Source: Anaerolineae bacterium
GTDB taxonomy: Bacteria; Chloroflexota; Anaerolineae; B4-G1
DNA length: 64,000 nt
Assembly: GCA_034432855.1 (NCBI GenBank)
Contig: DAOUBA010000058.1
Coordinates: forward strand, 5,483-69,482
Direction: 5' to 3'
The translations under genes and the position numbers were made by a program. Each line of letters starts with the position of its first letter. The first letter of the stretch is position 1. Positions 30,638 through 46,657 of this stretch are shown here, one piece after another. A model generated the notes under the pieces. The model saw nothing but the letters and a program-made list of their open reading frames with translations. It was not told the origin of the DNA and did no database searches.

Positions 30638-30653
30638 GAAAGGAGCACACATA

Positions 30654-31688
30654 ATGATCAAGAATCTTTCGGGATCGAGCGTTTCGGACTTGGGACGGGT
30701 CAAGACGTGGGTGGCTACGCCTCAACTGCGGGTACGGCTGGTGATCCGAGCCGTACTGGTGTTGGCCGTGATGCTATTCATCTACTATGTTGCGACGGCG
30801 CCCCGCTTCTTCAGTGTTGCCAACGCAGCCAACGTGGCCGCGCGAACGGCGCCGGGCATCATCTTGGCCGTGGCGCAGACGATGGTTATCATCTCGGCGG
30901 GCATTGACTTGTCCGTAGGGGCCATCCTCGCCTTTTCAGGCTCGTTGGCTTCGATAGCCTATTGCTATTGGGGCGTCCCCGTCTGGCCGGCTATGCTGCT
31001 CGCCCTTGCAGCAGGCGCCCTGTTGGGCTGTATCAACGGCCTGATTATCATGAAGGGCAAGATTCCCGATTTTATCGCTACACTGGGGATGATGGGCACA
31101 GCCCGTGGCATAGCCCTCATCCTGACCGGTGGGTTGCCTGTCCCTTCTCACCTGACCGCCGTTACTCTCAAGGCTTATCTGCCCAATGAGATCATTTGGA
31201 TGGGGAGCGGGAACATCCTTGGCTTCCCGGCAGGTGCCCTTATCGCCTTGCTGGTCGTCGTTGCCGGTTGGGTGATCCTGAGGCACACCGGTTTTGGACG
31301 CGCTATCTATGCCGTCGGTGGGAATAGAGAGGCGGCCAGGGTCTCGGGCATTGATGTTGACCGTACCAAGATCATGGTCTACACCCTCTCGGGATTGCTG
31401 GCGGGGCTGGCCAGCCTAGTGCTAGTAGGGCGCATGAACTCTGCCAACGCTCTGATGGCAGAACCGGCGAATCTGGAAAGCATCTCGGCTGCGGTCATCG
31501 GGGGCACCAACCTCTTCGGGGGCGAGGGTGGCGTGATCGGCTCCTTGATCGGTGCTCTCATCATGGGCATCCTGGGCAACGTTCTGAACCTGCATAATGT
31601 GCAGGATTTTGCGCAGCGGGTCTTTATGGGGTTGCTGATTATCGGCGTCGTACTGTTCGATCAGTTACGGAGAAGGTACGGCGCCTGA
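30654..31688 (+). CDS. ABC transporter permease (BPD_transp_2)
   Basis: ..AVGGNREAARVSGIDVDRTKIMVYTLSGLLAGLASLV.. polytopic. Confidence 0.85.
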   Translation: MIKNLSGSSVSDLGRVKTWVATPQLRVRLVIRAVLVLAVMLFIYYVATAPRFFSVANAANVAARTAPGIILAVAQTMVIISAGIDLSVGAILAFSGSLASIAYCYWGVPVWPAMLLALAAGALLGCINGLIIMKGKIPDFIATLGMMGTARGIALILTGGLPVPSHLTAVTLKAYLPNEIIWMGSGNILGFPAGALIALLVVVAGWVILRHTGFGRAIYAVGGNREAARVSGIDVDRTKIMVYTLSGLLAGLASLVLVGRMNSANALMAEPANLESISAAVIGGTNLFGGEGGVIGSLIGALIMGILGNVLNLHNVQDFAQRVFMGLLIIGVVLFDQLRRRYGA

Positions 31689-31712
31689 AACTGGTGAAAG
31701 GTGAGGGAGGCT

Positions 31713-32576
31713 ATGAAGTATTCTATAAGCAACTGGATATATGCCGACGAGCCCTTGCGGATCACTTTCCAACGCCTGCAGAAGTACGGTTACGACGGTG
31801 TAGAACTGGTAGGCGAGCCTCAGCGTTACAACGTCCAGGAGATCAACGGGCTTTGCCAGGAGTTCGGGCTTTCCGTCCTCTCCGTCCTCGGCTGGGCCAT
31901 CTGGCCCCTGGAGAGAGACCTGGCTCACCCGGACCCTCAGATGCGCCGGAAAGCCCTCAAGTACGCCGCCGAATGCGTGGACCTGGCCGTGGCCGTAGGG
32001 GCCCCCCTGGTGGTGGTTATCCCCGCCTCGGCAGGGAGAACCAGCCCGATTGGCCGGCTGGATAGCGGGGAAGCCTGGAAGGAGGCGGTGGCGAGGGAAT
32101 GGGACTATGCTGTGGAATCCGTCAAGGCCGCAGCAGCCTGTGCTGAGGAATACGGCGTGCTGATCGCCGTAGAGCCCATTAATCGGTACGAGAGCTTTCT
32201 CGTCAACAACGTGGATCAGGGCCTTCGCTTCGTCCAGGAGGTGAACTCTACAGTGGCAAGGCTGCATCTCGATGCGTTCCATATGAACATCGAAGAGAAG
32301 GATGTGGCCGAGGCTGTCCGCAAGGCCGGTGATCTCCTGGTCAACATGCACATTTCCGATTCCAACCGGGCGGCAGTGGGCCACGGCCACACCGACTTTA
32401 GGGCCATCATGCAGGCTTTGCAAGAGATCAACTACCAGGGTATACTTACCATGGAGCCTGTGCCGCCGGTGCCCGATGCCTTCATGGCTATCTCGATGGA
32501 AGAGTTCCTGCCCCTCAGGGATGTTTACGCTGAGGAGTGCATCACGCGCCTTCGCCAATACGAACGAGAGGTCTGA
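31713..32576 (+). CDS. Sugar phosphate isomerase/epimerase (xylose-isomerase-like TIM barrel)
   Basis: AP_endonuc_2 / XylA-like fold: ..LIAVEPINRYESFLVNNVDQGLRFVQEV..LHLDAFHMNIEEKD..; RBS gagggagg before ATG 31713. Confidence 0.75.
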   Translation: MKYSISNWIYADEPLRITFQRLQKYGYDGVELVGEPQRYNVQEINGLCQEFGLSVLSVLGWAIWPLERDLAHPDPQMRRKALKYAAECVDLAVAVGAPLVVVIPASAGRTSPIGRLDSGEAWKEAVAREWDYAVESVKAAAACAEEYGVLIAVEPINRYESFLVNNVDQGLRFVQEVNSTVARLHLDAFHMNIEEKDVAEAVRKAGDLLVNMHISDSNRAAVGHGHTDFRAIMQALQEINYQGILTMEPVPPVPDAFMAISMEEFLPLRDVYAEECITRLRQYEREV

Positions 32577-32622
32577 ACGCATCAGCCTGCTTGTGTGCGG
32601 ATTGTAGGGATAAAGGTTAAGA

Positions 32623-33486
32623 ATGAACAAGATCGGCATATACTATGCCTATTGGACGCACGATTGGGACGCGGACTTTCACCCTCTCATTGACAAGGTC
32701 GCTGAACTGGGATTTGATGTTCTGGAGGTCAATGCGGGTACCATAGCCGGCATGACATTTGAAGAACGCCAAAGCCTGAAAGCACACGCCGACGATAGGA
32801 ACATCATCCTGTCGCATTGCATTGGTCTTCCCCACCAATACGATATCGCCTCTGTAGACAAAGCCATCCGGGAGAATGGCATTGCCTACCTCAAGAAAAT
32901 CGCCAGGGCGATAGGCGAAATGGGTGGAGGGAATCTGGGTGGGATCATCTATGGTTCCTGGCCCGCAACGATGCCCGCAGGCGAGACGGATAAACGACCC
33001 TATGTCGAGCGCAGCGTTGTCAGCATGAAAGAAGCGATCAAGGCTGCAGAAGACAACAACGTCATTTTCAACGTGGAGGTGGTCAACCGTTTTGAGCAGT
33101 TCCTCATAAATACGTGTGAAGAAGCAATTGCTTACGTGGAAGCGGTTGCTAGCCCTAATGTCAAGATTCTGCTAGATACCTTTCATATGAACATCGAGGA
33201 GAATTTCATTGGCGAAGCGATCCAGAAAGCCGGTGACAAGTTGGGGCATCTCCATGTTGGGGAGAACAACAGGATGCCGCCCGGCTATGGCCATATCCCT
33301 TGGACAGAGGTCGGCGCTGCGTTGCGGAAGGTTGATTACCAGGGATACGTCGTTATGGAGCCCTTCCTGATGCCTGGCGGGGAAGTAGGACGCGACATCA
33401 AGGTTTTTCGAGACATGAGCGCCGATCTGGAGTTGGATGATGAAGCGCGAAAGGCTTTGATGTTCATTCGCGGTGTTTTGAAATAG
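32623..33486 (+). CDS. Ketose 3-epimerase (D-psicose/D-tagatose 3-epimerase family)
   Basis: Near-motif-by-motif match, from memory, to characterised D-psicose 3-epimerase: GIYYAYW..W.AD....I.KVA.LGFD.LE ; EV[VL]NRFE.[FY]LINT ; [ML]LDTFHMNIEE..IG.AI..AG..LGHLH.GE.NR.PG.G.IPW ; VVMEPF...GG.VG..IKV[FW]RD. Confidence 0.75.
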   Translation: MNKIGIYYAYWTHDWDADFHPLIDKVAELGFDVLEVNAGTIAGMTFEERQSLKAHADDRNIILSHCIGLPHQYDIASVDKAIRENGIAYLKKIARAIGEMGGGNLGGIIYGSWPATMPAGETDKRPYVERSVVSMKEAIKAAEDNNVIFNVEVVNRFEQFLINTCEEAIAYVEAVASPNVKILLDTFHMNIEENFIGEAIQKAGDKLGHLHVGENNRMPPGYGHIPWTEVGAALRKVDYQGYVVMEPFLMPGGEVGRDIKVFRDMSADLELDDEARKALMFIRGVLK

Positions 33487-33579
33487 GTGAAGTGAGGTGG
33501 GGCGCATGTAAATCTTGCGGGGGGACGAACGTCGGTTGAGCGCCGCCGTGTGCTCAAAGCACACGGCTGAGCCCACCGA

Positions 33580-33600
33580 AAGCCCTGCCGGGCTTATTTT
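33580..33600 (+). terminator. Putative intrinsic terminator (AAGCCC-tgcc-GGGCTT + TATTTT) after the epimerase gene, within a hairpin-rich 220-bp intergenic region
   Basis: Read directly; a further perfect 10-bp-stem hairpin sits at 33545-33567 (gccgtgtgct-caa-agcacacggc). Confidence 0.4.
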
Positions 33601-33706
33601 CAGCCCCTTAAGGAGGCTTTTGCCTGTTCAGCCCGGTGCTTTAGCGCCGGGCACGAGACAGTCAGCACTTCCCCCCCAAGTGCTACATGCGCCCAGTGAG
33701 GTGCAC

Positions 33707-34753
33707 ATGGAACACATGGAATCAGTCCGCATCTGTCTGGTAGGGGCCGGGCGTGCCGGTATGGTGCACGCCTTCAATTTCCGTCATCGCATCGCTGCGG
33801 CCCAACTGGCGGCCATCGTGGATGCCGACCAGACGCTGGCCCGCAGGCAGGCTGACGAACTGGACGTCCCGCACGTTTTCGAGAGCATCGAGGCGGCGCT
33901 TTCGGGGGTGGACTTTGACGCCGTCTGCATTGCCACACCGACGTTCACCCACGCCCCCATCGCGGTGGCAGCGGCGCGGGCCGGGAAACACGTCCTGTGC
34001 GAGAAGCCGATGGCGCTGACGCTGGACGAGGCGGACGCGATGATCGTCGCGGCCCAGGAGGCGGGGGTGATCCTGCAGATGGCCTTTATGCGCCGCTTTG
34101 ACCCGGCCTTTCGCGTGGCCAAGGAGCAGATCGAGGCCGGCGCTATCGGCGAGCCGATCATGATCCGCACGCTCACTCGGGGGCCGGGCCTGCCGCCGCG
34201 CTGGGCGTGTGATCCGGCTACCAGTATCGGCATGCTGGCCGAGGTGAACAGCCACGATTTCGATACCGTCCGTTGGCTGACAGGCAGCGAATTCGCCCGC
34301 GTCTACACGGAGGCGGCCACCTTCAAGGTTCCGCAACTGAGAGAAGAGTTCCCCAACTTTTACGATACCGCCGTGGTGAACATCCGTCTGGACAGCGGGG
34401 CGCTGGGCGTCATTGACGGTTGCTGTCCGGCAGAGTACGGCTACGATGCGCGGGCCGAAGTCCTCGGCACCAGAGGGGTGCTCTTCATCGGCGAACTGCG
34501 GGAGCGTGCGCTGGTGCGCTGCACGCGGGAGGGCGGTGTGGTAACGAAACAGTTCACCTCCTGGCCCACGCGGTTCGAGGCGGGCTATCTGGCGGAGGAC
34601 GAGCACTTTGTCAACTGCGTCCGTACCGGCGAACCGCCGGCGGTGACCGGCGAGGACGGGAAGCGGGCGCTGGAAGGGGTGTTGGCGGCGACCCGCTCGA
34701 TTCAGACGGGTGCCTCGGTGGCCCTTCCCCTTGGCGAAGGCGCGGGGGAGTAG
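33707..34753 (+). CDS. Gfo/Idh/MocA family oxidoreductase
   Basis: VRICLVGAGRAGMVHAFNF..; ..AGKHVLCEKPMA..; start refined to MEHMESVRI (RBS gtgagg). Confidence 0.8.
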   Translation: MEHMESVRICLVGAGRAGMVHAFNFRHRIAAAQLAAIVDADQTLARRQADELDVPHVFESIEAALSGVDFDAVCIATPTFTHAPIAVAAARAGKHVLCEKPMALTLDEADAMIVAAQEAGVILQMAFMRRFDPAFRVAKEQIEAGAIGEPIMIRTLTRGPGLPPRWACDPATSIGMLAEVNSHDFDTVRWLTGSEFARVYTEAATFKVPQLREEFPNFYDTAVVNIRLDSGALGVIDGCCPAEYGYDARAEVLGTRGVLFIGELRERALVRCTREGGVVTKQFTSWPTRFEAGYLAEDEHFVNCVRTGEPPAVTGEDGKRALEGVLAATRSIQTGASVALPLGEGAGE

Positions 34754-34757
34754 CCTG

Positions 34758-35810
34758 ATGGAGACTATGCTGGCTGCCGTGTATCATGGCCCCCATGATG
34801 TCCGATTGGAGGAAGTGGCGCGTCCACAGCCGGGCCCGGGAGAGGCCATGATGCGCGTTCGCGCAGCGTCCATCTGCGCGACCGACCTGCGTATCTTCAA
34901 CCACGGCCACTTCAAGATTCCGCCAGACACGGCTCGCATCCTGGGCCACGAATTGGCCGGAGAGATCGTGGCCGTGGGCGAAGGAGTCATCGGCCTGACA
35001 CCCGGCATGCGCGTCGCGGTGGCCCCGAACGTCGGTTGCGGCAGTTGTTGGGAGTGCATCCAGGGGTACAACAACCTCTGTCCCGACTACGACGCCTTGG
35101 GGATCACACTCGATGGCGGCTTTGCGGAAACCATGCGCATCACCGCGCCGGCGGTGCGGCAGGGGAACGTGGTCGCGATACCGGAGGGCCTCTCGTTCGA
35201 GGAGGCCGCTCTTGCCGAACCCCTGTCCTGTTGTTTCAACGCGCAAGAGGTCTGCCACCTATCGCCTGGTGAGACACTGCTCATCATCGGCGCGGGTCCC
35301 CTGGGCCTGATGCACCTGCTCCTGGGCCGCTACAGCGGGGCGGGCCAGGTCATTGTGAGCGAGGTGCAGGAAAAGCGCGCGCAGCAGGCCGCTGCGTTGG
35401 GCGCGGACCTGGTTGTGAATCCCAAAGAACAGGACTTGAAGAGTGCAGTCCTGGAAGCGACCGGTGGACACGGTGCGGATGTGGTCATGGTCGCCGTCGG
35501 ATCAGCAGAGTTGCAGGAACAGGCGGTGGAACTGGCTGCAAGGCGCGGCCGGGCGTGCTTCTTCGCCGGGCTGGCTGCCGGGCGCGACCGCGTCGGCATC
35601 AACGCCAACCACATCCACTACGGGCAGGTGACGGTCGTCGGCACCACCGGGTCGAACCTTCGCCAGTATCGCCAGACCATGCAGATACTCGGATCGGGCC
35701 GGCTCTCGCTTGCATCGCTGGTGACGGCCAGGCGACCGCTGCAGGAGATCGCGCAGGCACTTGCCGACGCGGCATCGGGTGAGCAATTCAAGGTGGTCGT
35801 CGTCCCGTGA
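34758..35810 (+). CDS. Zinc-dependent alcohol dehydrogenase (MDR family; sorbitol/threonine-dehydrogenase-like)
   Basis: Catalytic Zn ligands C..H..E (ICATDL..GHELAGEIV); structural Zn GCGSCWECIQGYNNLC; Rossmann IIGAGPLGL. Confidence 0.8.
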   Translation: METMLAAVYHGPHDVRLEEVARPQPGPGEAMMRVRAASICATDLRIFNHGHFKIPPDTARILGHELAGEIVAVGEGVIGLTPGMRVAVAPNVGCGSCWECIQGYNNLCPDYDALGITLDGGFAETMRITAPAVRQGNVVAIPEGLSFEEAALAEPLSCCFNAQEVCHLSPGETLLIIGAGPLGLMHLLLGRYSGAGQVIVSEVQEKRAQQAAALGADLVVNPKEQDLKSAVLEATGGHGADVVMVAVGSAELQEQAVELAARRGRACFFAGLAAGRDRVGINANHIHYGQVTVVGTTGSNLRQYRQTMQILGSGRLSLASLVTARRPLQEIAQALADAASGEQFKVVVVP

Positions 35811-35829
35811 ACGGCAAAAGAGAGGCGCT

Positions 35830-36402
35830 ATGGAAGTCATGAAACCATTTGCAACGACGTTGTCCTTCGCTGAACGGACCATCACACCGTACAGCCAGAG
35901 GATCGTGCGGCGGCTGAGCAACATGCGCGGGATGTACCAGGACGCAGCCGCGACTGAGGCGATCCTGGCGCAGCACGACCCCCTCATCTATGAGGTCTAC
36001 ACGGTGGATGTCCCGGAAAGTGAGGGGCATTTGCTACACTGTCTCACCGTGCTCTATCCGGGCCGGGTGGGGGATGAATACTATATGACCAAAGGCCACT
36101 TTCACGTTGCGATGGGCACGGCCGAGATCTACCTGGGGCTGGAAGGCGAGGGTTATCTGCTGATGCAGACCAAAGAGGGCGATGTGCAGGCGTTGAAGAT
36201 GGAGCGCGGGACGATAGCCTACGTGCCCCCCGATTATGCCCATCGCACCGTGAACACGGGGCAAGGCCCCTTTGTCTTCTTTGCCGTCTGGCCCGGTCAC
36301 GCCGGCCACGATTACGGCACGATCGAGGAGTGCGGTTTCATGCGGCTCATGGTGGAGCGGGACGGCCAACCCGTGCTGATCCCCAGCCCCCGTTACACCT
36401 AA
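35830..36402 (+). CDS. Cupin-type glucose-6-phosphate isomerase (cPGI, archaeal-type)
   Basis: Strong motif-level resemblance, from memory, to Thermococcales cPGI: VRRLS.M.G.[FY]..E..DP.[IV]YEVY.V......G.L...T.VLYPG.VG.E...TKGHFH...AE.Y..L.G.G..L.QT.EGD.....ME.GT..YVPP..AHRTVN.G..PF.F.A..P..AGHDYGTI.E.GF. Confidence 0.75.
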   Translation: MEVMKPFATTLSFAERTITPYSQRIVRRLSNMRGMYQDAAATEAILAQHDPLIYEVYTVDVPESEGHLLHCLTVLYPGRVGDEYYMTKGHFHVAMGTAEIYLGLEGEGYLLMQTKEGDVQALKMERGTIAYVPPDYAHRTVNTGQGPFVFFAVWPGHAGHDYGTIEECGFMRLMVERDGQPVLIPSPRYT

Positions 36403-36429
36403 AAGTGGCGCAAGAGAGGAGGACGTCGG

Positions 36430-37992
36430 ATGAACCCCTGTCTGATCGGCGTAGACCTGGGTACGATGGGCACCAAGGCGGCGATTTTCGACGCCGAGGG
36501 GCAATTGCTGGCCAGCGCCTACGAAGAGTCACGGCTGCACTACCCGCAGCCCGGCTGGGTGGAACAGGATCCAGAGGACTTTTACGGCGCCGCAGTGCGC
36601 ACGATCCGCCAGTGCGTGGAGTCGAGCGGCATTGACCCGGCGCAGGTAGCCGCTATCGCCTTCGACGGGCAGATGGCCGGCATCGGTACGGTGGATAAGG
36701 ACTGGGGCACTCCCACAGTCTACGATTCCTGGCTGGATACCCGCTGCAAGCCGGCCATCGAGCAGATGCGGCCCTTCGAGGAGACCATCATCCAGCGCGC
36801 AGGCGGCCCGCCGACCTACTCTCACGGCCCCAAGATGCTGTGGTGGAAGCAAGAACGGCCCGAGGTCTTTCGCAAGATTCACAAGTTCGTCGTCCCCGGC
36901 GGTTACGTCGCTGGGCGTATGGCCGGACTCAAGGGGGAAGACGCCTTCATGGATTATACCTACATTCACTTCTCATGTCTCAGCGACACGGTGAAGGCGA
37001 CCTGGGACGAAGACCTGTGCCGCGAGTTCGGCATCCCGCTGGAGAAACTGCCCCGCATCGTGTCCCCCTGGGAGGTGATCGGCAAGTTGACGCCAGCGGC
37101 GGCCAGGGACTGCGGGCTGAAGGCCGGGACGCCCATCGCCGCCGGGGCAGGCGACCAGGCGGCGGGAATGTTAGGCGCTGCGATGGTCGAGCCGGGCCTG
37201 GTGTTCGACGTGGCGGGCACTGCTTCCGTCTTTGCGATCTGCGTGGACCGCTTCGTGCCGGACGTGACGCACAAGACGCTGTTCACCGCCCGGCTGGTGC
37301 CGCGGGACCTGTGGTACGCGCTGGCCTACATCAACGGGGGTGGGCTGAACCTGCGCTGGTTCCGCGACGAGTGGGCGAACGAGGTCAAGGAAGAAGCCAG
37401 GGCGCGAGGCGAGAGCGAGTACGTGATCCTCGACCGGCTGGCGGCAGAGGTGCCGCCTGGTTCAGATGGCCTGCTCTTCCTGCCTCACCTGCAAGGGCGG
37501 GTCTGCCCCAGCGACGCCGACGTGCGCGGCTTGTGGATGGGCTTCACCTGGGCGCACCGCAAGCCCCACTTCTACCGGGCGATGCTGGAGGCGGTGGCAT
37601 ACGAGTACGCTTACTATCTGGGCATCGAGAAGGCGCTCCTGCCGGAGGCTGAGTTCAGGGAGGCGCGCGTCATCGGTGGTGGCGCCCGCAGCCGGCTGTG
37701 GAACCAGATCAAAGCGGATGTGCTGGGACTGCCTTACGTGCGCTTGAACCGGGAAGAGTTTTCGGTACTGGGCTCTGCCATCGTCGCAGGGTATGCGGTG
37801 GGAGTGTTCGACGACCTCAAGGCCACTGCCCGCCGCTTCGTGGCGGCCACCGAGCGGATCGAGCCGCAGTCGGAACACCATCGGTTCTATCAACCCTACG
37901 TCGAGCAGTACGTTGCCCTTCTGGCCGAGACCGCGCCATTTTATCGGCGGCTGGCGACCCTGCCAGAACCGCCTGATGGCGGGGCGTCGTGA
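36430..37992 (+). CDS. FGGY family carbohydrate kinase (xylulokinase/glycerol-kinase-like)
   Basis: N-terminal LIGVDLGTMGTKAAIFD; FGGY_N and FGGY_C conserved blocks (..GGGARSRLWNQIKADVLGLP..). Confidence 0.85.
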   Translation: MNPCLIGVDLGTMGTKAAIFDAEGQLLASAYEESRLHYPQPGWVEQDPEDFYGAAVRTIRQCVESSGIDPAQVAAIAFDGQMAGIGTVDKDWGTPTVYDSWLDTRCKPAIEQMRPFEETIIQRAGGPPTYSHGPKMLWWKQERPEVFRKIHKFVVPGGYVAGRMAGLKGEDAFMDYTYIHFSCLSDTVKATWDEDLCREFGIPLEKLPRIVSPWEVIGKLTPAAARDCGLKAGTPIAAGAGDQAAGMLGAAMVEPGLVFDVAGTASVFAICVDRFVPDVTHKTLFTARLVPRDLWYALAYINGGGLNLRWFRDEWANEVKEEARARGESEYVILDRLAAEVPPGSDGLLFLPHLQGRVCPSDADVRGLWMGFTWAHRKPHFYRAMLEAVAYEYAYYLGIEKALLPEAEFREARVIGGGARSRLWNQIKADVLGLPYVRLNREEFSVLGSAIVAGYAVGVFDDLKATARRFVAATERIEPQSEHHRFYQPYVEQYVALLAETAPFYRRLATLPEPPDGGAS

Positions 37993-38016
37993 AATGATGA
38001 GAGGTGGAGGTGAAGG

Positions 38017-38769
38017 ATGAGATTCCAGGGGAAAATTGCTATCGTGACCGGAGGGGGCCGAGGGATGGGGCAGGCAATTGCCCGCGCCCTGGCAAAGGAA
38101 GGCGCGACCGTCGCCATCTTCGAGAAGGACGTGGAGGCCGGACGCGAGACGGCGGCGCAGATCGAGGCCGAAGGGGGAAAAGCGTTCTCTCTCCAGGTGG
38201 ACGTCAGCGACAAAGAGCAGGTGCTACGTGCCGTCGGCGAGACGGTTGAGCACATGGGGCGAATTGACATCCTGGTCAACAACGCGGGCATCCATACAGC
38301 GGCGCCTTTCGAGCAAGAAACCCGCTCCGATTGGCTACGGCTCTTCGAGGTGAACGTGCTGGGGACGGTCTTCCCCTCCCAGGCGGTTGCGCCCTATATG
38401 ATCAAGCAGGGCAGCGGGCGCATCGTCCACATCTCGTCCAAGGCGGCCGTAGTGGGGGAGCGCGGACACGTGGCCTACAGCGCATCCAAGGGGGCGGTGC
38501 TCTCCATGACGCGGGCCATGGCGGTGGACCTGGCGCCCCACAACATCACCGTAAACGCCGTGTGCCCAGGGCCCGTCGTCACCGACATGTTGCTGACCGC
38601 CATGCCGGACGCTGCCGACCGCCAGGCGTTGGCGCAGAAAGCCCCGCTGGGACGGCTGGGGCAACCTGAGGACATAGCCGCGGCAGTGCTCTACCTGGCG
38701 TCGGACGAGGCCGGCTGGTGCACCGGACAGGCGATTTCAGTGGATGGCGGTTTTTCGATCCTGTTATAA
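38017..38769 (+). CDS. SDR family oxidoreductase
   Basis: TGGGRGMGQAIA; NNAGI; YSASKGA (YxxxK). Confidence 0.85.
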   Translation: MRFQGKIAIVTGGGRGMGQAIARALAKEGATVAIFEKDVEAGRETAAQIEAEGGKAFSLQVDVSDKEQVLRAVGETVEHMGRIDILVNNAGIHTAAPFEQETRSDWLRLFEVNVLGTVFPSQAVAPYMIKQGSGRIVHISSKAAVVGERGHVAYSASKGAVLSMTRAMAVDLAPHNITVNAVCPGPVVTDMLLTAMPDAADRQALAQKAPLGRLGQPEDIAAAVLYLASDEAGWCTGQAISVDGGFSILL

Positions 38770-38782
38770 CTGGGAAGAAAAA

Positions 38783-39706
38783 GTGAACAAAGTATTGGTC
38801 ACCCCGAGGTCGTTGACCAAAAAGGGACATCCTGCGCTCGACGCGCTCCGGGATGCCGGTTACGAGGTGATATTCTCCACACCGGGCGTGCAGCCGGATG
38901 AGGAGGAATTGTTGCGGCTACTCCCCGGTTGTGTAGCATACCTGGCCGGCGTAGAGAAGATTTCGGCGAGAGTGCTGGAGGCGGCACACGACCTGCGTGT
39001 GATCAGCCGTAACGGGACAGGAATAGACAACATTGACCTGGAGGCAGCCAGGCGGTTAAACATCACAATTTGCGTTGCTAGGGGCGCCAATGCCAACGGT
39101 GTGGCCGAACTGACGATCGCGCTGATGTTCGCGTTGGCGCGCGCCATTCCGTTCAGCGACGCAAGTATGAAGAGCGAGCAGTGGGCAAGACGCGAAGGAA
39201 TTGAACTTACGGGTCGTACCCTCGGGCTGATCGGCTGCGGCATGATCGGGAAAAAAGTCGCCGTACTCGGCTCCGCCATCGGGATGCAGGTCGTGGCGTT
39301 CGACCCTTACCCCGATCCCTCCTTCGCACCGGCCAACTTCTGCTGGGGTTCTCTGGACGAGGTGTATAAGCATTCGGACATCGTCAGCCTGCATTGTCCG
39401 GCGCCAGCAGACGGAAAGCCGCTCATTGACCGGGACGCCATCGCAAAGATGAAGCCCGGCGTTTACCTGATCAACACAGCCAGAGCCGCTTTACTCGACG
39501 AGGAGGCCGTGCTCGAAGGGCTGGCGAGCGGGCAGATCGCGGGCGCGGCGGTTGACGTGTTTGCGAAAGAGCCGCCGGAAGACTACCGGCTGGTGAAACA
39601 TGACCGCGTGATTGCGACGCCTCACATCGGAGGCTACACCGCCGAGAGCGTCCAGAGGGCGACCCAAGAAGCGGTGGATAACATCCTCAAGAATCTGGGA
39701 GGCTAG
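38783..39706 (+). CDS. D-isomer-specific 2-hydroxyacid dehydrogenase (phosphoglycerate/glyoxylate-reductase-like)
   Basis: NAD-binding GLIGCGMIGKKVA; catalytic ..ATPHIGGYTAES..; start placed at GTG 38783, just after the SDR stop (the ORF-track ATG at 38744 would overlap the SDR). Confidence 0.75.
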   Translation: MNKVLVTPRSLTKKGHPALDALRDAGYEVIFSTPGVQPDEEELLRLLPGCVAYLAGVEKISARVLEAAHDLRVISRNGTGIDNIDLEAARRLNITICVARGANANGVAELTIALMFALARAIPFSDASMKSEQWARREGIELTGRTLGLIGCGMIGKKVAVLGSAIGMQVVAFDPYPDPSFAPANFCWGSLDEVYKHSDIVSLHCPAPADGKPLIDRDAIAKMKPGVYLINTARAALLDEEAVLEGLASGQIAGAAVDVFAKEPPEDYRLVKHDRVIATPHIGGYTAESVQRATQEAVDNILKNLGG

Positions 39707-39711
39707 CCTAA

Positions 39712-40377
39712 ATGGGGTACACCGAGTTATTCGAGACGTTACGCCAGTATGGGGTCGTGCCGGTCATCGCCATCGAGTCCCCTGAATCCGCCCTACCCCT
39801 GGCCGACGCTTTGATCGCCGGGGGCTTGCCCGTAGCGGAGATCACGTTCCGCACAGCGGCTGCCGGAGAGGTCATCGCCACGCTCAAGAAGGAGCGGCCC
39901 GAACTGATTCTGGGGGCAGGGACGATCCTGTCGCTGGAGAACCTGAGGCTGGCGCATGAGCACGGCGCGCAGTTCGGCGTGGCGCCGGGGTTGAATCCGG
40001 AGATCGTCAAAGAGGCGCAGCGGCTGGGCCTGCCCTTCATCCCGGGAGTGCTCACCCCAAGCGAGATCGAGCATGCGATGGGATTGGGCGCAAGAGTGCT
40101 CAAGTTCTTCCCGGCGGAAGAGAGCGGCGGCGTGGCCATGCTCAAGGCCTTGGCTGCGCCCTATCGGCACACGGGCGTCAGGTTCGTGCCCACGGGGGGC
40201 GTCACAGCCGCCAACCTCGAGAGTTATCTGGCACAGGACGTGGTCCTGGTCGTGGGTGGCACGTGGGTGGCGAAGAAGGAGGTCATCGCCACACAGGGTT
40301 GGGACGCGATTCAGACAAACTGCCGGCAAATACGTGAGATCGTCGCGCGCGTCCGGGGCCAGAAACACAAGTCATAG
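39712..40377 (+). CDS. 2-dehydro-3-deoxy-(phospho)gluconate aldolase (KDPG/KHG aldolase family)
   Basis: Family pattern ..VVPVIAIESPE.ALPLADALIAGGLPVAEITFRT..GAGTILS..GAQF.V.PG; Schiff-base Lys context ..RVLKFFPAE.. Confidence 0.8.
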   Translation: MGYTELFETLRQYGVVPVIAIESPESALPLADALIAGGLPVAEITFRTAAAGEVIATLKKERPELILGAGTILSLENLRLAHEHGAQFGVAPGLNPEIVKEAQRLGLPFIPGVLTPSEIEHAMGLGARVLKFFPAEESGGVAMLKALAAPYRHTGVRFVPTGGVTAANLESYLAQDVVLVVGGTWVAKKEVIATQGWDAIQTNCRQIREIVARVRGQKHKS

Positions 40378-40388
40378 GAGGTTCGTAA

Positions 40389-42215
40389 ATGTTCCAAGGC
40401 GGATACCTGGGCAAAATTCTTCGGGTCAACCTCTCCGCGCGGGAACACCGCGTCGAGCGGCTGGAGGAGAGCGAGGCGCTCAAACTGCTGGGTGGACGCG
40501 GCCTGGCAGCCAAGAGGTACTATGACGAGATCGGCCCCGAGGTGGAGCCGTTCGACCCGGCCAACGAGGTCATTCTGATGACCGGCCCGCTGACGGGAGT
40601 GGACCTGCCATCCACAACCAAGATCGGGTTCAGCACCAAATCGCCGGAGACTGGCATCTATCTGTGCGCTAATAGCGGCGGCGATTTTGGCCCCCAACTC
40701 AAGTGCTGTGGCTTCGACGGGCTAATCATCGAGGGACAGGCCAACGATTGGACGTACCTGCTTATCAGGGACGGTGAAGTGACTTTTGGCGACGCCCGCC
40801 CCTGGCAAGGCCTGACCACGAGTGAGACGCAGGAGGCGCTGAAAGAAGCCATGGGCGATCGGCGGGCCACGGCGCTCTCTATCGGCCCGGCCGCCGAGCG
40901 ATTGGTGTGCTTTGCCTACATCAACGTGGACTCGCGTGCCGCCGGACGGGGAGGAGCCGGGGCCGTGCTTGCCTCGAAACGGCTGAAGGGTATCGCTATT
41001 CTGGGCAGCGGCAGGATTCCCGTGGCCGATCCGGACAGGGTCAAGGAGATTCGGCGAGCCGCCATCGCGGACCTACGCCAGTCGCGGGCCAATCACACCA
41101 AGTACGGCACCCCGCAATATATCGAGGTCATCAACGAATTGGGCTGCATGCCCACGCGCAACTTCCAGACCGCCTATTTCGAGGGCGCGGACAAGATAGA
41201 CGCCCACGTGATGCGCGCGAAATACTGGACGAAAAACTATGGCTGCTATCACTGTCCGGTCGCCTGCGGCAAGGTGTGCGAGGTGAAGGATGGCCCCTTC
41301 GCCGGAGCGCGCGCGCGGACCGAGTTCGAGACGGTCGCGCTCCTGGGCCCCAACTGCGGCGTGGACGATTACGGCGCCATCGTCGCAGCCAATCAGGCCT
41401 GCGACGAGATCGGCATAGACACCATCTCGGCGGGCAACGCCGTCGCCCTGGCAATGGAACTGTACGAGCGCGGGCTGATCACCAACGCGGATACGGAAGG
41501 CATCGAGGCCCGCTTTGGCAACGGGCAGGCGCTCGTGGACCTGATCCGGCTGATCGGGGAGCGGCGCGGGATCGGCGACCTGCTGGCCGAGGGGATGCGG
41601 CACGTGGCGCGCGCGCGACCGGAATGGCGTCGCTACATCCTGGCGGTCAAGGGGCTGCCCTTCGCGGGCTACGATCCGCGCGGCTTTCACGGCAACGGCC
41701 TGACCTACGGCACCTCCAGCCGTGGGGCCTGCCACAACGTGGGTGGTTGGACGATCCGCGCCGAATTGCAGAGCGGGCAGTACGACCGCTTTGCCCTGAA
41801 AGGCAAAGGGGTGCTGGTCCAAACCCTACAGGACAACCGGGCCTACGTGGACAGCCTGGGCCTGTGCACCGTGGTCAGGGGTGCGCTGGGCTTTGGCGAC
41901 ACGCCCGCAGGCGACGTGCTCGCCGCCGTGACCGGCCACGATTTTACCCCCCAGTTGATGGAGATCGGCGCCCGCATCTATACCCTGGAGCGGTTAATCC
42001 TCAACCGTGAAGGCATACGGAGAAAGGACGACCTGCTGCCCGAACGCATCACCCAAGAGGCCATTCCGTCCGGCCCGACCCAGGGACGCATCCTGACAGA
42101 GGAGATGTATGCCGTTATGCTGGACGAGTACTACGCGGTGCGCGGCTGGGACGAGGACGGCGTGCCCACGCCGGAGACGATTCACAGACTGGGCCTGGAT
42201 GAACTGCTTGCCTGA
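40389..42215 (+). CDS. Aldehyde:ferredoxin oxidoreductase (AOR family, tungstopterin enzyme)
   Basis: AFOR_N: GKILRVNLS...RGLAAK...GPLTG...KSPETG...GGDFGP.LK..G.D.L...G; Fe-S Cys cluster ..YHCPVACGKVC..; AFOR_C tail ..DEYYAVRGWDEDGVPTPETIHRLGLDELL. Confidence 0.9.
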   Translation: MFQGGYLGKILRVNLSAREHRVERLEESEALKLLGGRGLAAKRYYDEIGPEVEPFDPANEVILMTGPLTGVDLPSTTKIGFSTKSPETGIYLCANSGGDFGPQLKCCGFDGLIIEGQANDWTYLLIRDGEVTFGDARPWQGLTTSETQEALKEAMGDRRATALSIGPAAERLVCFAYINVDSRAAGRGGAGAVLASKRLKGIAILGSGRIPVADPDRVKEIRRAAIADLRQSRANHTKYGTPQYIEVINELGCMPTRNFQTAYFEGADKIDAHVMRAKYWTKNYGCYHCPVACGKVCEVKDGPFAGARARTEFETVALLGPNCGVDDYGAIVAANQACDEIGIDTISAGNAVALAMELYERGLITNADTEGIEARFGNGQALVDLIRLIGERRGIGDLLAEGMRHVARARPEWRRYILAVKGLPFAGYDPRGFHGNGLTYGTSSRGACHNVGGWTIRAELQSGQYDRFALKGKGVLVQTLQDNRAYVDSLGLCTVVRGALGFGDTPAGDVLAAVTGHDFTPQLMEIGARIYTLERLILNREGIRRKDDLLPERITQEAIPSGPTQGRILTEEMYAVMLDEYYAVRGWDEDGVPTPETIHRLGLDELLA

Positions 42216-42483
42216 GAAAGCCAGCATCACGGTGCAGATCAAGTATCTATCCACTCTGCGAGACCGGACGGGACGCCGGCAAGAGACGGTCGGTTTCCCG
42301 CTGGGCGCTACTTTGCAGGACGTGGCCGACTGGCTGAATCAGCGTTATGCCCTCTCGCTGCCTGACCCCCAGGTGATGGCGACCCTCAATGGGAAGGGGT
42401 GGGAGCAGTTCCCGGCGAAACTGTCTACCGAGATCAGGGAAGGAGACGTCATCTATCTGTTTCCCCCTATCGCCGGTGGGTAG
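42199..42483 (+). CDS. MoaD/ThiS-like beta-grasp protein ending in Gly-Gly; overlaps the 3' end of the AOR gene
   Basis: ..ITVQIKYLSTLRDRTGRRQETVGFPLGATLQDVADWL...EGDVIYLFPPIAGG* (MoaD pattern, C-terminal GG). The start is ambiguous (ATG 42199 or GTG 42232). Confidence 0.55.
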   Translation: MNCLPEKASITVQIKYLSTLRDRTGRRQETVGFPLGATLQDVADWLNQRYALSLPDPQVMATLNGKGWEQFPAKLSTEIREGDVIYLFPPIAGG

Positions 42484-42515
42484 TACCCGCTGTTCTTCAG
42501 AGACCGCGTTTCCCC

Positions 42516-42553
42516 AACCACGCTGCTGTGAATGGACGGCGTGGTTGTTTTTT
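42516..42553 (+). terminator. Rho-independent terminator after the AOR/MoaD-like genes
   Basis: aaccacgc-(15 nt loop)-gcgtggtt followed by gtttttt, read directly. Confidence 0.6.
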
Positions 42554-42599
42554 CATAAGAGGCCCCACCAACGCCGGTCCTTTCCAGGCCGTTCGGGGC

Positions 42600-43268
42600 T
42601 TATGGATGTGGGCCTGATTTGCCGGAGTAGGCGGGCCGGTAGAGCCCGGCGGGGTTGGCGCCGAGAAAGCCGGCCTCGTAGGTGCGCGCATCCACCGGCG
42701 AGAGCGCGGCGGCCATCTGCGGTGTGATGACGGGAAAGCGCCGCAGTTCCCCCAGGCGGCGGATGATCGGCTCCAGGCCATTGTCGCTGCACGTCCAGTC
42801 CAGGGGGTCGAAGGATTTCAGGTTTAGCGGCACCGTGTACTCGCGTAGCGTCTTTTCCCCCTCGACGTTGAAGTAGAACTCGAAGTACGACATCACCAGT
42901 TCGCGCAGGCTGCGATAGATCGGCTCGCGGAAGCGCAATCCGACGCAGTTCGACTTGGCGACAGCGCCGAGAAATCCGTCGCGCCGGTAGATGGCGATGG
43001 TGTGGTCGTCGTCGGTTCCGGGCGCAGCGAGCAGGTCCACGATCACCGGTGGGTGGCCCAGGCGGCGCAGGGCAGCGGCGGCGAACATGGCGCCGTCGAA
43101 GCAATTGCCCCGCCCATCCTGCAACACCCGCAGCGGGCAGCGGTTGAATTTCTCGTCGGTGTATGGCAGCGCATCCAGGAAGGCTTGAATTCGATAGGGG
43201 CTGTCCAGGCTGGTGAGAATCCGACGCTGATCGGGGGTCAGGTGCTCTTCGAAGGTTTCGCTCATCAA
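42600..43268 (-). CDS. Transglutaminase-like (cysteine-protease fold) domain protein
   Basis: Core-like motif RGNCFDGAMFAAAALRRLG (G-x-C-x-x-x-A..R) with downstream His/Asp candidates; family assignment is tentative. Confidence 0.4.
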   Translation of the reverse strand: MMSETFEEHLTPDQRRILTSLDSPYRIQAFLDALPYTDEKFNRCPLRVLQDGRGNCFDGAMFAAAALRRLGHPPVIVDLLAAPGTDDDHTIAIYRRDGFLGAVAKSNCVGLRFREPIYRSLRELVMSYFEFYFNVEGEKTLREYTVPLNLKSFDPLDWTCSDNGLEPIIRRLGELRRFPVITPQMAAALSPVDARTYEAGFLGANPAGLYRPAYSGKSGPHP

Positions 43269-43286
43269 ACGTGCTCTCTCCGGCCG

Positions 43287-44726
43287 TCACTTCTCCCAAT
43301 GTGGTTGGGGCACAATACGCAGGGCGTGTGCCGGCCAAGGGGATAGCCGCTCAGGGAGTGTGATCATCAGCCGACCGTCGTCCTGTGTCCAGGGCAGCGG
43401 CCCCTCGTGGCCCAACAGGTGTACACGCGTGGCAGGTGCGGCCACGAGCGATTCAATGGCAATCTGGGGGCCGTGCGGTGTGCCGAGCAAGATGGCATAC
43501 AGCGCTTCGCCCTTCTGGGTGAAGCGGATCGCCGTACCGTCCGTCGTGCGTCCTTCGGCCCGAAGCCACGGGTACGTATCGAATACTGCGTCGCCGTTCA
43601 CGGCCAGCCAGGCGCCCAACCCCAGCAACCGCTCCTGCTGCACCTGCGGGATGGTCCCGTCGGCAGTCGGCCCGACGTTCAGGAGCAGGTTGCCGTTCTT
43701 GCTGACAATGTCCACGAAAAGGTGCACAAGTTCCTCGACCGAGAGCATGTGCTCTGGCTGCTCCTGTTGGTTGTAGCCGAACGAGTAGCCCAAACCGCGT
43801 GTGGCCTCCCATTTCCCGCGCACGATCCTCTTGTACGATGTGTATTCAGGTGTTCTGAAGTCGAAGTGGATGCCGCTGGACGTCCCGCCGCCGGTTTTCA
43901 ATGCCAGCCGGGCCGCTAGGCGAAAGAGGGCTTTAACAAACCGGTGGTCAGGGATGCGGAGTTGGACGAAGCGGTCGTTGATCACGCCATCGGGCACGGC
44001 GTTGTAATAGTCGGCGAAGAGGCGTTTGACGTTTGCCGCTGCCGGATAGCCGATGTCGTTCCATATCACCGCCGGCTGATAGCGGGCGATCAACTCGCGC
44101 CAGTGACTGTCGGCATAACGGACGTACTCGTTGCTCTGCGGGATGGTGGTGAAGAGTTCGGCCACGTCGCGGATGGGGCCGGGGTTGAAGGTCCAATCCA
44201 GCCCGCCGGAGTAGTACAACCCCATACGCAGGCCGCGCGCTTGCACTGCCTGGGCCACTTCCCCCACCAGATCGCGCGTGGCGTGATAATCCGGTCTGTG
44301 TGGGTTGGGGTGCACACTTGGCCACAGGAGAAAACCGTCGTGGTGTTTGGCTGTCAGCACGACGTAGCGGGCGCCGGCGTGTGCGAACAGGTCGGCCCAG
44401 GCGGCGGGATCCATCCGCGCGGCAGCCTGGTCGAAGAGCGGAGCAAACTGCTCGTAGGTGAAATCGGCGCCGTAGGTGGCAACATGGTGCCGGTGTGTGG
44501 GGCTGCCCTCGATCCTGATCGAGTTGCCGTACCACTCGGCGTAGGGATTATGGGCGAACCAATAGGCCCAACCCTTACGGGCGACGATTTCCTGAAAGTT
44601 GCCGACCACCGGTGCCCAGGCGGGGACGGAGTATAGCCCCCAGTGGACAAAGATGCCCAGTTTGGCCCCGGCGAGCCAGGGGGGCAGGGGATGCCGGCGC
44701 AATGAGCGAAGGGTGGGGTGGTACAT
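43287..44726 (-). CDS. Alpha-L-fucosidase, glycoside hydrolase family 29 (no signal peptide)
   Basis: GH29 N-terminal block W..AKLGIFVHWGLYSVPAW..., ..AGARYVVLTAKHHDGF.LW.S..., ..MGLYYSGGLDW... Confidence 0.85.
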   Translation of the reverse strand: MYHPTLRSLRRHPLPPWLAGAKLGIFVHWGLYSVPAWAPVVGNFQEIVARKGWAYWFAHNPYAEWYGNSIRIEGSPTHRHHVATYGADFTYEQFAPLFDQAAARMDPAAWADLFAHAGARYVVLTAKHHDGFLLWPSVHPNPHRPDYHATRDLVGEVAQAVQARGLRMGLYYSGGLDWTFNPGPIRDVAELFTTIPQSNEYVRYADSHWRELIARYQPAVIWNDIGYPAAANVKRLFADYYNAVPDGVINDRFVQLRIPDHRFVKALFRLAARLALKTGGGTSSGIHFDFRTPEYTSYKRIVRGKWEATRGLGYSFGYNQQEQPEHMLSVEELVHLFVDIVSKNGNLLLNVGPTADGTIPQVQQERLLGLGAWLAVNGDAVFDTYPWLRAEGRTTDGTAIRFTQKGEALYAILLGTPHGPQIAIESLVAAPATRVHLLGHEGPLPWTQDDGRLMITLPERLSPWPAHALRIVPQPHWEK

Positions 44727-44740
44727 TCTCTGACCGGGGG

Positions 44741-45814: not shown

Positions 45815-45854
45815 GCCACCCCTCCGCGCGGATGGACGCCGTGTAGCGCAGGCT

Positions 45855-46619: not shown

Positions 46620-46657
46620 TCCGCGCCTCCTTTTGTGTGGATGGCCTTTTGGCACAA

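Follow-up and report, generated by a model that had tools for sequence, protein, structure and literature searches.

An aldehyde:ferredoxin oxidoreductase lineage tied to a cupin-isomerase sugar module in bacteria: a candidate ferredoxin-linked aldehyde-to-acid step

Introduction

A 2026 survey of the tungsten oxidoreductases assigns a defined physiological role to just 5 of their 92 clades (PMC13328260). This work addresses a predicted aldehyde:ferredoxin oxidoreductase (AOR) of this family, encoded at the end of a sugar operon of an Anaerolineae bacterium (Chloroflexota). The stretch of DNA analysed, called the window throughout, spans 64,000 nucleotides of contig DAOUBA010000058.1 (assembly GCA_034432855.1, positions 5,483 to 69,482), and the nearest relatives of its proteins come from metagenome-assembled genomes (MAGs) labelled Anaerolineales or Anaerolineae. 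The operon, at 28372-42483 on the + strand, is best explained as a system for the uptake and breakdown of a rare sugar of the ketose or polyol type. The AOR lineage is found in the same gene module in every sampled neighbourhood and alternates there with other candidate aldehyde-oxidising enzymes. Our favoured reading, held tentatively and at somewhat under even chances, is that the AOR performs the aldehyde-to-carboxylate step of the module with ferredoxin, on an aldose or aldose phosphate.

The closest described relatives are two class I tungsten-type oxidoreductases (WORs), PfAOR of Pyrococcus furiosus and CsWOR87 of Cetobacterium somerae, which the window AOR resembles in being a single AFOR_N plus AFOR_C subunit with no small-subunit gene. 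With the PfAOR clade, whose known members are assigned to aldehyde detoxification, it shares the [4Fe-4S] cysteines, the aligned pterin and active-site motifs and a downstream ThiS/MoaD-like gene, with ThiF in some relatives. It differs from PfAOR in sequence (about 41% identity), in falling into a separate cluster and in not standing alone but within a conserved sugar operon; the residue aligned to the Fe-bridge ligand Glu332 also appears to be Ala. The AOR looks like a member of a PfAOR-like class I lineage committed to an uncharacterised sugar pathway.

Two kinds of ferredoxin-linked sugar oxidation offer further comparisons. In the archaeal semi- and non-phosphorylative Entner-Doudoroff (ED) branches, glyceraldehyde is oxidised in a ferredoxin-linked reaction that has been proposed for the AOR of Thermoproteus tenax; the Sulfolobus counterpart is a molybdenum enzyme of another family. 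The window is alike in linking an AOR-family enzyme, with ferredoxin as the likely acceptor, to a pyruvate-forming aldolase. Its aldolase, however, is Eda (PF01081) where theirs is a DapA-type 2-keto-3-deoxy(phospho)gluconate (KD(P)G) aldolase, gluconate dehydratase, KDG kinase and glycerate kinase are missing from it, and its AOR tracks a cupin isomerase more closely than the aldolase. The second comparison is with two glycolytic tungsten enzymes for the oxidation of glyceraldehyde 3-phosphate, the Thermococcales GAPOR and the GOR of Caldicellulosiruptor bescii, which are placed in clades 23 and 20, GOR having a small subunit (PMC13328260). The proposed logic is similar, namely ferredoxin-linked, non-phosphorylating oxidation of a sugar-phosphate aldehyde, and C. 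bescii keeps NAD and ferredoxin enzymes for one step, as we propose across the variants of the module.

The isomerase belongs with the cupin-type glucose-6-phosphate isomerases (cupin PGIs, cPGIs) of P. furiosus, Thermococcus litoralis, Salmonella and Ensifer, sharing PF06560, about 55% identity, the TKGHFH motif, the Glu, the AHR motif and His158; Tyr152 of the P. furiosus enzyme is Trp in the window protein. Gene context argues for a ketose phosphate other than, or besides, fructose 6-phosphate (F6P) as its substrate. The inositol route of Thermotoga maritima is a looser relative: the Gfo/Idh/MocA, zinc alcohol dehydrogenase (Zn-ADH) and TIM-barrel proteins of the window find their top matches in IolG, IolM and IolO, all below the equivalog cutoffs, and the transporter is of the ribose type, which often serves inositols and polyols. 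The window differs in lacking an IolN match, and its cupin, FGGY kinase, phosphoglycerate dehydrogenase (PGDH)-like enzyme, Eda and AOR differ from the Thermotoga hexuronate route.

Conservation of the AOR within a sugar module

Two sets of loci were compared, and their members are numbered with an L. The first set starts from the AOR and comprises nine neighbourhoods, those of the window and of eight AORs at 70-86% identity (L003, L004, L006, L007, L008, L091, L092 and L093), of which L006 is a complete Spirochaetota chromosome (CP070841.1). A cupin-PGI gene lies 0-1 genes from the AOR in all nine, and all nine hold a ThiS-family gene, joined by ThiF in three. Eda and the PGDH-like dehydrogenase are each present in seven, and the Gfo/Idh/MocA enzyme, Zn-ADH and FGGY kinase in most. 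The preliminary description of this DNA had tied the AOR to a sugar block on the strength of the window, and the tie holds in every sampled neighbourhood of its relatives. Gene order runs Eda-cPGI-AOR in L006-L008, L091 and L093, AOR-cPGI-ThiS in L004, AOR-ThiS-cPGI-2HADH-Eda in L092 and cPGI-2HADH-AOR-ThiS-Ldh_2 in L003, 2HADH being the 2-hydroxyacid dehydrogenase. Because the order varies in this way, the association exceeds inherited synteny.

The second set starts from the cupin gene and consists of the 80 best species-genome loci, searched with the window proteins and with their open reading frames (ORFs) clustered. A module locus was defined as a cPGI gene with at least three of Gfo/Idh/MocA enzyme, Zn-ADH, FGGY kinase, PGDH-like dehydrogenase and Eda. 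There are 27 such loci, Eda being found in roughly half to 60% of cases, and the module is seen in Chloroflexota, Spirochaetota, Bacillota, Actinomycetota, Thermodesulfobacteriota and Proteobacteria. The 27 divide without overlap into nine with an AOR, three with an NAD(P) aldehyde dehydrogenase (ALDH) and fifteen with a shikimate-dehydrogenase-like (SDH-like) gene, ten of these fifteen also having a PTE-family hydrolase; AOR and ALDH never occur together. Each of the three alternatives tends to adjoin the cupin gene. The AOR does so in about nine loci, the SDH-like gene often does likewise, and the ALDH gene lies directly 5' of the cupin gene in L012, L024, L057, L030 and L083. L012 and L057, which have no AOR, are laid out nearly as the window is, with about 50-65% protein identity and an ALDH resembling AldA and succinate-semialdehyde dehydrogenase (SSADH). 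The commonest neighbour of the cupin isomerase is the FGGY kinase.

Hydrolases of three unrelated families recur as candidate lactonases: the PTE family, an MBL-fold hydrolase that accompanies the SDH-like gene in the module on rhizobial and roseobacter plasmids, and, at one AOR locus, the SGL family, which includes lactonases. Three unrelated candidates therefore suggest an aldose-to-lactone-to-aldonate step in the SDH-like variants. The window contains no homologue of the ALDH, PTE or SDH-like proteins, so that the AOR is its only dedicated candidate for direct conversion of an aldehyde to an acid. Module conservation and the alternation patterns together argue that the AOR belongs to the working of the module instead of being carried along with it, and that its step is an oxidation of aldehyde to acid, for which other lineages use NAD(P).

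A competing account would make the AOR and its MoaD-like partner a mobile cassette for general aldehyde detoxification or acid-to-aldehyde reduction, unlinked to the sugar pathway. MoaD genes strictly adjoining AOR genes were described in 2006 as sporadic and probably mobile pairs, predicted to act in molybdopterin synthesis for the tungsten cofactor (PMC1779556), and within the P. furiosus clade those class I AORs that have been characterised have broad specificity and are assigned to detoxification (PMC13328260). The pair in the window sits, moreover, at the 3' end of a mosaic operon. We consider this account quite improbable, as all nine loci of the AOR-first set and nine further loci of the cupin-first set place the AOR inside the module, at varied positions and in several phyla, the AOR is never found alongside the ALDH, and the module AORs form a tree cluster of their own. 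In the window the AOR gene follows Eda after a gap of 11 nt, as the preliminary description had it in placing the two side by side, and the promoter scan returned near the gene only one weak promoter-like site, within its 3' end. The presence of the lineage in the same module in all sampled neighbourhoods and several phyla suggests a metabolic job over general detoxification.

Two unassigned proteins also recur in the module. A conserved protein of about 446 amino acids, with no Pfam or NCBIfam match, is found in L017, L058, L060, L065, L068, L073 and L092, and a 561-aa protein weakly resembling L-fucose isomerase is found in L027, L042 and L048; each might supply a catalytic step not yet accounted for.

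A candidate route and its alternatives

In the route that we favour, the FGGY kinase would phosphorylate the sugar and the cupin isomerase would turn the kinase product into an aldose, probably an aldose phosphate. The AOR would oxidise the open-chain aldose, again probably as the phosphate, to the (phospho)aldonate and pass the electrons to ferredoxin. The PGDH-like enzyme would then oxidise the (phospho)aldonate at C2, and Eda would split the 2-oxo acid into pyruvate and a triose-level aldehyde phosphate, so that the route would end in the Entner-Doudoroff manner but lack the customary dehydratase. In sister operons the step of the AOR would fall to an NAD(P) ALDH or to an SDH-like enzyme and a lactonase.

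The aldose made by the cupin isomerase is favoured as substrate because all three alternatives cluster at the cupin gene, because one of them is a dehydrogenase-lactonase pair, and because Eda is undetected in six of the nine AOR module loci, some of them cut by contig ends, and is also absent from L009, the nearest relative of the window operon. The isomerase product is probably phosphorylated, since the FGGY kinase is its gene's commonest neighbour and characterised homologues of cPGI, PGDH and Eda use phosphorylated substrates. The conserved order cPGI-2HADH-Eda suggests C2 oxidation followed by aldol cleavage.

The preliminary description proposed another substrate. There the aldolase would free glyceraldehyde, lactaldehyde or glycolaldehyde, the AOR would oxidise it, and the 2-hydroxyacid dehydrogenase would oxidise the 2-hydroxy acid so formed, a bacterial ED-like branch of the semi- or non-phosphorylative kind. 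This scheme is favoured by the order Eda-(cPGI)-AOR, seen in the window, L006, L007, L008, L081, L091 and L093, and by the closeness of the sister-operon ALDH to AldA, a lactaldehyde/glycolaldehyde dehydrogenase (471 bits, cutoff 500). A D-2-hydroxyacid dehydrogenase stands beside or near the AOR, with an Ldh_2-family enzyme as well in L003, L080 and the window, and the P. furiosus AOR oxidises glyceraldehyde in vitro. The scheme nevertheless strikes us as rather unlikely, and glyceraldehyde released by the aldolase as the less likely AOR substrate. Eda is of the canonical 2-keto-3-deoxy-6-phosphogluconate/2-keto-4-hydroxyglutarate (KDPG/KHG) type, with motifs known as phosphate-binding; the module has an FGGY kinase but neither gluconate dehydratase nor glycerate kinase; and the loci in which Eda was not found, L009 included, tell against an aldolase product. 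The AOR alternates with an ALDH or a dehydrogenase-lactonase pair beside the cupin isomerase, not beside the aldolase, and the dehydrogenase-lactonase alternative would make no sense for C2 or C3 aldehydes because these cannot form lactones. What survives of the ferredoxin-linked ED-like route proposed earlier is thus the link between AOR and module and the Entner-Doudoroff-type aldolase ending, without the archaeal flavour and the glyceraldehyde substrate.

The AOR might also run in reverse, with reduced ferredoxin converting an aldonate or uronate into an aldose that is fed onward through the cupin isomerase and the kinase. According to PMC9295118, AORs can reduce non-activated acids when supplied with low-potential donors; the hosts are fermentative anaerobes, likely rich in reduced ferredoxin, and the AOR gene adjoins that of the isomerase. 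We hold this to be very improbable. In other variants the position of the AOR is taken by an NAD(P) ALDH or by a dehydrogenase-lactonase pair, both physiologically oxidative. The downstream 2-hydroxyacid dehydrogenase and Eda require an acid, not an aldose, and the reduction of acids is strongly endergonic.

A hexitol or ketohexose feeder into the ordinary ED pathway is the remaining alternative. The cupin would be a true PGI converting F6P to glucose 6-phosphate (G6P), the AOR or the SDH-like enzyme with a lactonase would replace G6P dehydrogenase and 6-phosphogluconolactonase, and the dehydratase would be encoded elsewhere. The isomerase is indeed close to proven PGIs and keeps all their metal ligands, the D-psicose 3-epimerase of the operon would yield fructose, the cPGI of S. 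meliloti is paired only with an ABC transporter, a GatD-like Zn-ADH and an FGGY kinase, and Marinovum has an ILVD/EDD-family dehydratase near its module. We still judge the feeder improbable. G6P is almost entirely cyclic and an unlikely substrate for an AOR or ALDH, the conserved PGDH-like enzyme would be left without a role, and a second PGI for F6P would be needless where a housekeeping PGI exists. No dehydratase family recurs, moreover, among the gene families common to at least 5 of 85 loci.

Several points weigh against the aldose route that we favour. Hexose phosphates are almost entirely cyclic and so poor AOR substrates. The ALDH of the sister operons is nearest to AldA and SSADH, enzymes whose substrates are small aldehydes without a phosphate, and this fits an aldolase product equally well or better. 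The proposed order of steps is chemically incomplete, because Eda needs a 3-deoxy-2-oxo acid and no dehydratase occurs in the module or the window. The alternation of AOR with the SDH-like gene (Fisher p = 4.7e-5) is a figure that ignores shared ancestry; L091 and L093 hold an AOR together with a PTE and SDH-like pair, so that the alternation is not absolute, and SDR (short-chain dehydrogenase/reductase) genes co-vary with the AOR and ALDH variants. These two facts leave one-to-one replacement unproven, and a strict swap of the SDH-like enzyme and lactonase for the AOR is weakened accordingly. Three SDRs and the Gfo/Idh/MocA enzyme of the window could in principle oxidise C1 of the aldose. The cupin carries Trp154 at the position of the proton-transfer Tyr152, and no tungstate transport or molybdenum cofactor genes (tup, wtp, moe, moa) were found among the ORFs scanned in the window. 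It is conceivable that the order of steps is rescued by a sugar that is already deoxy, by early dehydration through the TIM-barrel enzyme in the manner of IolE, or by a dehydratase encoded elsewhere; 3-deoxy sugars or pentose or tetrose phosphates as substrates are a speculative solution.

A bolder version of the aldose reading may be stated, although we regard it as unlikely: a dedicated sugar-aldehyde:ferredoxin oxidoreductase would serve an undescribed, dehydratase-free ED-like pathway for rare sugars and polyols in at least six phyla, in which anaerobes have swapped the NAD(P)-linked C1 step for a tungsten- and ferredoxin-linked one.

In the literature searched, no paper links cupin PGIs with AORs or describes the module, and the words sugar, isomerase, cupin and Chloroflexi do not appear in the text of the 2026 WOR classification (PMC13328260). 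The protein families and the pairing of AOR with WorX are already known; the association of an AOR lineage with this module looks new. An AOR lineage tied to one sugar operon, and alternating there with an ALDH or a dehydrogenase-lactonase pair, offers a concrete and testable catabolic role. If the aldose reading is true, a bacterial member of the PfAOR-like group gains such a defined role, and anaerobes may redirect sugar oxidation to ferredoxin and hence potentially to H2 production. The comparison also flags a widespread bacterial cupin-PGI module that appears to reach Eda without a canonical dehydratase.

The AOR and its MoaD-like partner

The AOR matches PF02730 (220 bits) and PF01314 (420 bits) over its full length, so the profile search agrees with its first assignment. 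Among solved structures it is closest to 9g7j (432 bits, 40% identity) and the P. furiosus AOR 1aor (424 bits, 41%), with weaker matches to formaldehyde oxidoreductase (318), WOR5 (236) and BamB (176 bits). In the alignment with 1aor the motifs CYHCPVAC, LGLCT, TEFET, RGACH and DEIGIDT fall at matching positions, with conservation of the four [4Fe-4S] cysteines, the counterparts of Glu313 and His448 and the DxxGxD pterin motif. We take Cys288, Cys291, Cys295 and Cys494 of the P. furiosus enzyme to be the [4Fe-4S] ligands, and Glu313, His448 and DxxGxD to belong to the pterin and active site. In a neighbour-joining tree all 19 module AORs, at 53-100% identity to the window AOR, cluster apart from the P. 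furiosus AOR and 9g7j.

Neither the operon nor the eight other sampled AOR neighbourhoods hold a small-subunit, polyferredoxin or Fer4-type gene. The absence of a nearby small-subunit gene accords with class I of the scheme in PMC13328260, and the AOR is presumably a single-subunit aldehyde:ferredoxin oxidoreductase with tungsten as its metal. The ferredoxin-type label given earlier accords with its single subunit and with the ferredoxin-dependent Pyrococcus AOR as its closest relative. Identity with GAPOR or GOR was rejected on the score with the GAPOR equivalog model NF040818, which is 52.6 bits (cutoff 1300) and covers the N-terminal 120 residues only.

The MoaD-like protein matches PF02597 (44 bits), passes the TIGR01687 moaD_arch model (55.7 bits, cutoff 49.5) and ends in PPIAGG. 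An overlap of 17 nt with the AOR gene had been described; it stands if the ATG at 42199 is the start, the AOR stop TGA being at 42213-42215, and would vanish if translation began at 42232, where an in-frame GTG is a possible alternative start. The alignment with homologues begins only at about residue 7-12. In relatives the two genes overlap by 1-4 nt or are separated by short gaps; the pair is thus tightly coupled whichever start is used. The protein is best read as a non-catalytic WorX-type sulfur carrier that would make the pterin dithiolene of the AOR cofactor. The ThiS-like neighbour of AORs was named WorX, with ThiF noted beside it, in the 2026 classification (PMC13328260). As the pairing was already described there and in PMC1779556, the MoaD-like gene is the expected companion of the AOR, and the earlier suggestion of a cofactor-maturation partner fits both. 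A ThiS/MoaD-like (WorX) gene lies beside all 12 AORs at 70% identity or more, followed directly by a ThiF-family gene in L008, L091 and L093. No MoeB/ThiF or MoaE partner gene is present within the 64-kb window.

A second module-embedded AOR sub-lineage, 53-55% identical to the window AOR, was seen in L016, L019, L027, L042, L058, L077 and L085, in Moorellaceae, Clostridia, Syntrophobacterales and other MAGs. No MoaD-like gene was found within the flank of any of these seven.

The cupin isomerase

The window cupin aligns over its full length with the Thermococcus and Pyrococcus cPGIs 1j3p, 1x7n and 4lul (200 bits; the 55% identity given above is read off the alignment). Together with PF06560 this agrees with the TKGHFH and AHRTVN motifs reported earlier, both of which are present. 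The protein keeps the equivalents of P. furiosus His88, His90, Glu97, His136 and His158, and the metal ligands His88, His90, Glu97 and His136 are invariant across 74 cupin PGI sequences; Glu97 is counted among the metal ligands of the P. furiosus enzyme. Tyr152 and His158 are the proton-transfer residues of that enzyme (PMC6627849). Over the 74 sequences the Tyr152 position is Y in 51, W in 18 and F in 5; the cupins directly adjoining an AOR have mostly Y, and one has F.

The preliminary description had treated the cupin PGI as rare in bacteria, and the protein turned out to be common. A protein search returned 2664 clusters at E <= 1e-10, and the species-genome scan found it in at least 597 bacterial and archaeal genomes, with loci in Chloroflexota, Actinomycetota, Thermodesulfobacteriota, Bacillota, Acidobacteriota and Proteobacteria as well as Thermococci. 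A rarity or a recent archaeal transfer was rejected on these counts. The bacterial cPGIs of Salmonella and Ensifer reportedly show PGI activity (Hansen et al. 2005).

Other contexts of the gene were also met. L036, L038, L040, L046, L074 and L084 (Phototrophicaceae, Aggregatilineales and other Chloroflexota MAGs) carry sulfatase and PfkB kinase genes after a stretch that encodes a binding protein, an FGGY kinase, an SDH-like protein and cPGI, an arrangement that hints at a sulfated-sugar route. L023, L025, L026 and L029 (Syntrophaceae and Thermodesulfobacteriota MAGs) have an M20 peptidase, cPGI, an uncharacterised gene and an aminotransferase, with branched-chain-type ABC transporter genes alongside in three of the four; none of these four loci has sugar-module genes.

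Layout of the operon

The block flagged at first, 33707-42553, is the distal portion of an uninterrupted run of + strand genes at 28372-42483. The genes are tightly packed, with intergenic gaps mostly of 5-50 nt and one of about 220 nt ahead of the Gfo/Idh/MocA gene. The NCBI gene calls for the contig concur with these coordinates, and every gene named in the preliminary description is present where it was placed, on the + strand. The features are as follows.

26849-28174, upstream of the run: ATP-binding cassette (ABC) binding protein
28372-29133, + strand: SDR, first gene of the run (Pfam and NCBIfam)
29141-30637, + strand: sugar ABC ATPase (Pfam and NCBIfam)
30654-31688, + strand: ribose-type permease (Pfam and NCBIfam)
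31701-32576, + strand: IolO-like, xylose-isomerase-like TIM-barrel enzyme (AP_endonuc_2; IolO 158 bits, cutoff 300)
32623-33486, + strand: D-psicose (ketohexose) 3-epimerase (NCBIfam equivalog NF051856, 380 bits, cutoff 300)
33707-34753, + strand: Gfo/Idh/MocA NAD dehydrogenase, inositol-dehydrogenase-like (PF01408/PF02894)
34755-35810, start approximate, + strand: Zn-dependent polyol or polyol-phosphate dehydrogenase of the MDR family (ADH_N/ADH_zinc_N)
35830-36402, + strand: cupin PGI-family aldose-ketose isomerase (PF06560, 101 bits)
36430-37992, + strand: FGGY-family sugar or polyol kinase (FGGY_N/FGGY_C)
38017-38769, + strand: SDR (adh_short)
38783-39706, + strand: PGDH-like D-isomer-specific 2-hydroxyacid dehydrogenase (2-Hacid_dh_C)
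39712-40377, + strand: class I KDPG/KHG aldolase, Eda (PF01081, 221 bits)
40389-42215, + strand: AOR, WOR family large subunit (AFOR_N and AFOR_C)
42199-42483, + strand: MoaD/ThiS-family protein with Gly-Gly end, WorX-type AOR partner (PF02597)
about 42516-42555, + strand: probable intrinsic terminator, a hairpin then a T-run (sequence reading, with an overlapping site in the scan)
42600-43268, - strand: convergent gene of 222 aa, the next after the operon

The hairpin and T-run together with the convergent gene probably close the operon. The region further upstream, 19652-26640, encodes another ABC system of the ribose type, a GntR/UTRA regulator and one more SDR; a second ABC binding protein is encoded there at 20815-22269.

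The aldolase and the other sugar enzymes

An archaeal-type KD(P)G aldolase had been suggested, and this proved mistaken: the gene is a classical bacterial class I Eda. With 249 bits it clears the TIGR01182 cutoff of 156; its match to 4e38 and 1vhc reaches 190 bits and that to E. coli Eda 158 bits. PF01081 is its sole Pfam hit, and no DHDPS/NAL (DapA) family match was found at E <= 0.001. The motifs AEITFR, GAGT, LKFFP, PTGGV and GGTW are present; they correspond to the Schiff-base lysine, the glutamate that acts as general base and the phosphate-binding loops of E. coli Eda. With a bacterial aldolase and a cPGI spread over bacterial and archaeal genomes alike, the archaeal flavour once attributed to the block falls away.

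The remaining enzymes are matched at family level. The Gfo/Idh/MocA enzyme scores 289 bits with the IolG model TIGR04380 (cutoff 355); its top solved relative is 3ezy (215 bits), presumably TM0414 of T. maritima, followed by inositol dehydrogenases. The Zn-ADH has IolM (204 bits, cutoff 450) and Tdh (192 bits) as top NCBIfam matches, both under cutoff, and threonine and sorbitol dehydrogenases as structural relatives. The TIM-barrel enzyme at 31701-32576 has the 5-keto-L-gluconate epimerase IolO as its top match. The FGGY kinase (XylB 277 bits, cutoff 380; GntK 236 bits, cutoff 648) is about equidistant from glycerol, AI-2, xylulose and gluconate kinases. The SDR at 38017-38769 passes the broad glucose 1-dehydrogenase subfamily model NF005559 (266 bits, cutoff 215), and the 2-hydroxyacid dehydrogenase scores 253 bits with the PGDH model (cutoff 454), its best structure being the PGDH 1wwk (222 bits). 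Among the window ORFs scanned there was no ILVD_EDD, enolase-superfamily, UxuA/UxaA, PfkB or glycerate-kinase match.

Several known pathways were set aside. A T. maritima-type inositol pathway was rejected on the sub-cutoff IolG, IolM and IolO scores and the lack of IolN in the window. The inositol and L-glucose/L-galactose pathways more generally show family likeness only, and they require dehydratases, which were not found here. Sulfoquinovose degradation had been prompted by the mimicry of phosphate by sulfonate and by a nearby Ldh_2 gene resembling sulfolactate dehydrogenase; it found no support, as the cupin of known sulfoglycolysis clusters is the unrelated DUF4867 and no sulfoquinovosidase or sulfonate exporter was seen. 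That Ldh_2-family gene (46658-47761, - strand, 4 kb downstream) has L-sulfolactate dehydrogenase as its top match (265 bits, cutoff 500), and a homologue 43% identical lies directly 3' of the MoaD-like gene in L003 (12113-13228) and L080 (about 13694).

Composition and neighbouring genes

The operon looks like a mosaic in composition, judging by its G+C content, which is 0.51-0.58 over the transporter and epimerase half (20000-34000) and 0.62-0.65 from the Gfo/Idh/MocA gene onward (34000-48000). It looks mosaic at the protein level as well. The stretch from the psicose epimerase to the SDR, and the AOR, are 79-90% identical to L009, which is without Eda and whose 2HADH is merely 41% identical to that of the window. 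The 2HADH-Eda pair of the window (38783-40377) is nearest to L081, at 71% and 75%.

Directly downstream of the operon a GH29 alpha-L-fucosidase (43287-44726, - strand) is followed by a histidine kinase; no evidence was found of a link between fucose and the operon. The 222-aa protein at 42600-43268 (- strand) has a sub-threshold transglutaminase-core match (E = 0.003), and its homologues turned up solely in near-identical contigs. A D12-class DNA adenine methyltransferase (48492-49565) stands within a local low-GC patch (0.565), and no restriction-enzyme partner was recognised among its neighbouring genes. Long ORFs of 505-835 aa without a Pfam match occur at 2935-5442, 6584-8848, 10223-11953, 14643-16160 and 51382-53145, the last having a Pro/Thr-rich C-terminal region, and a B12-binding radical SAM protein is encoded at 16180-17793.

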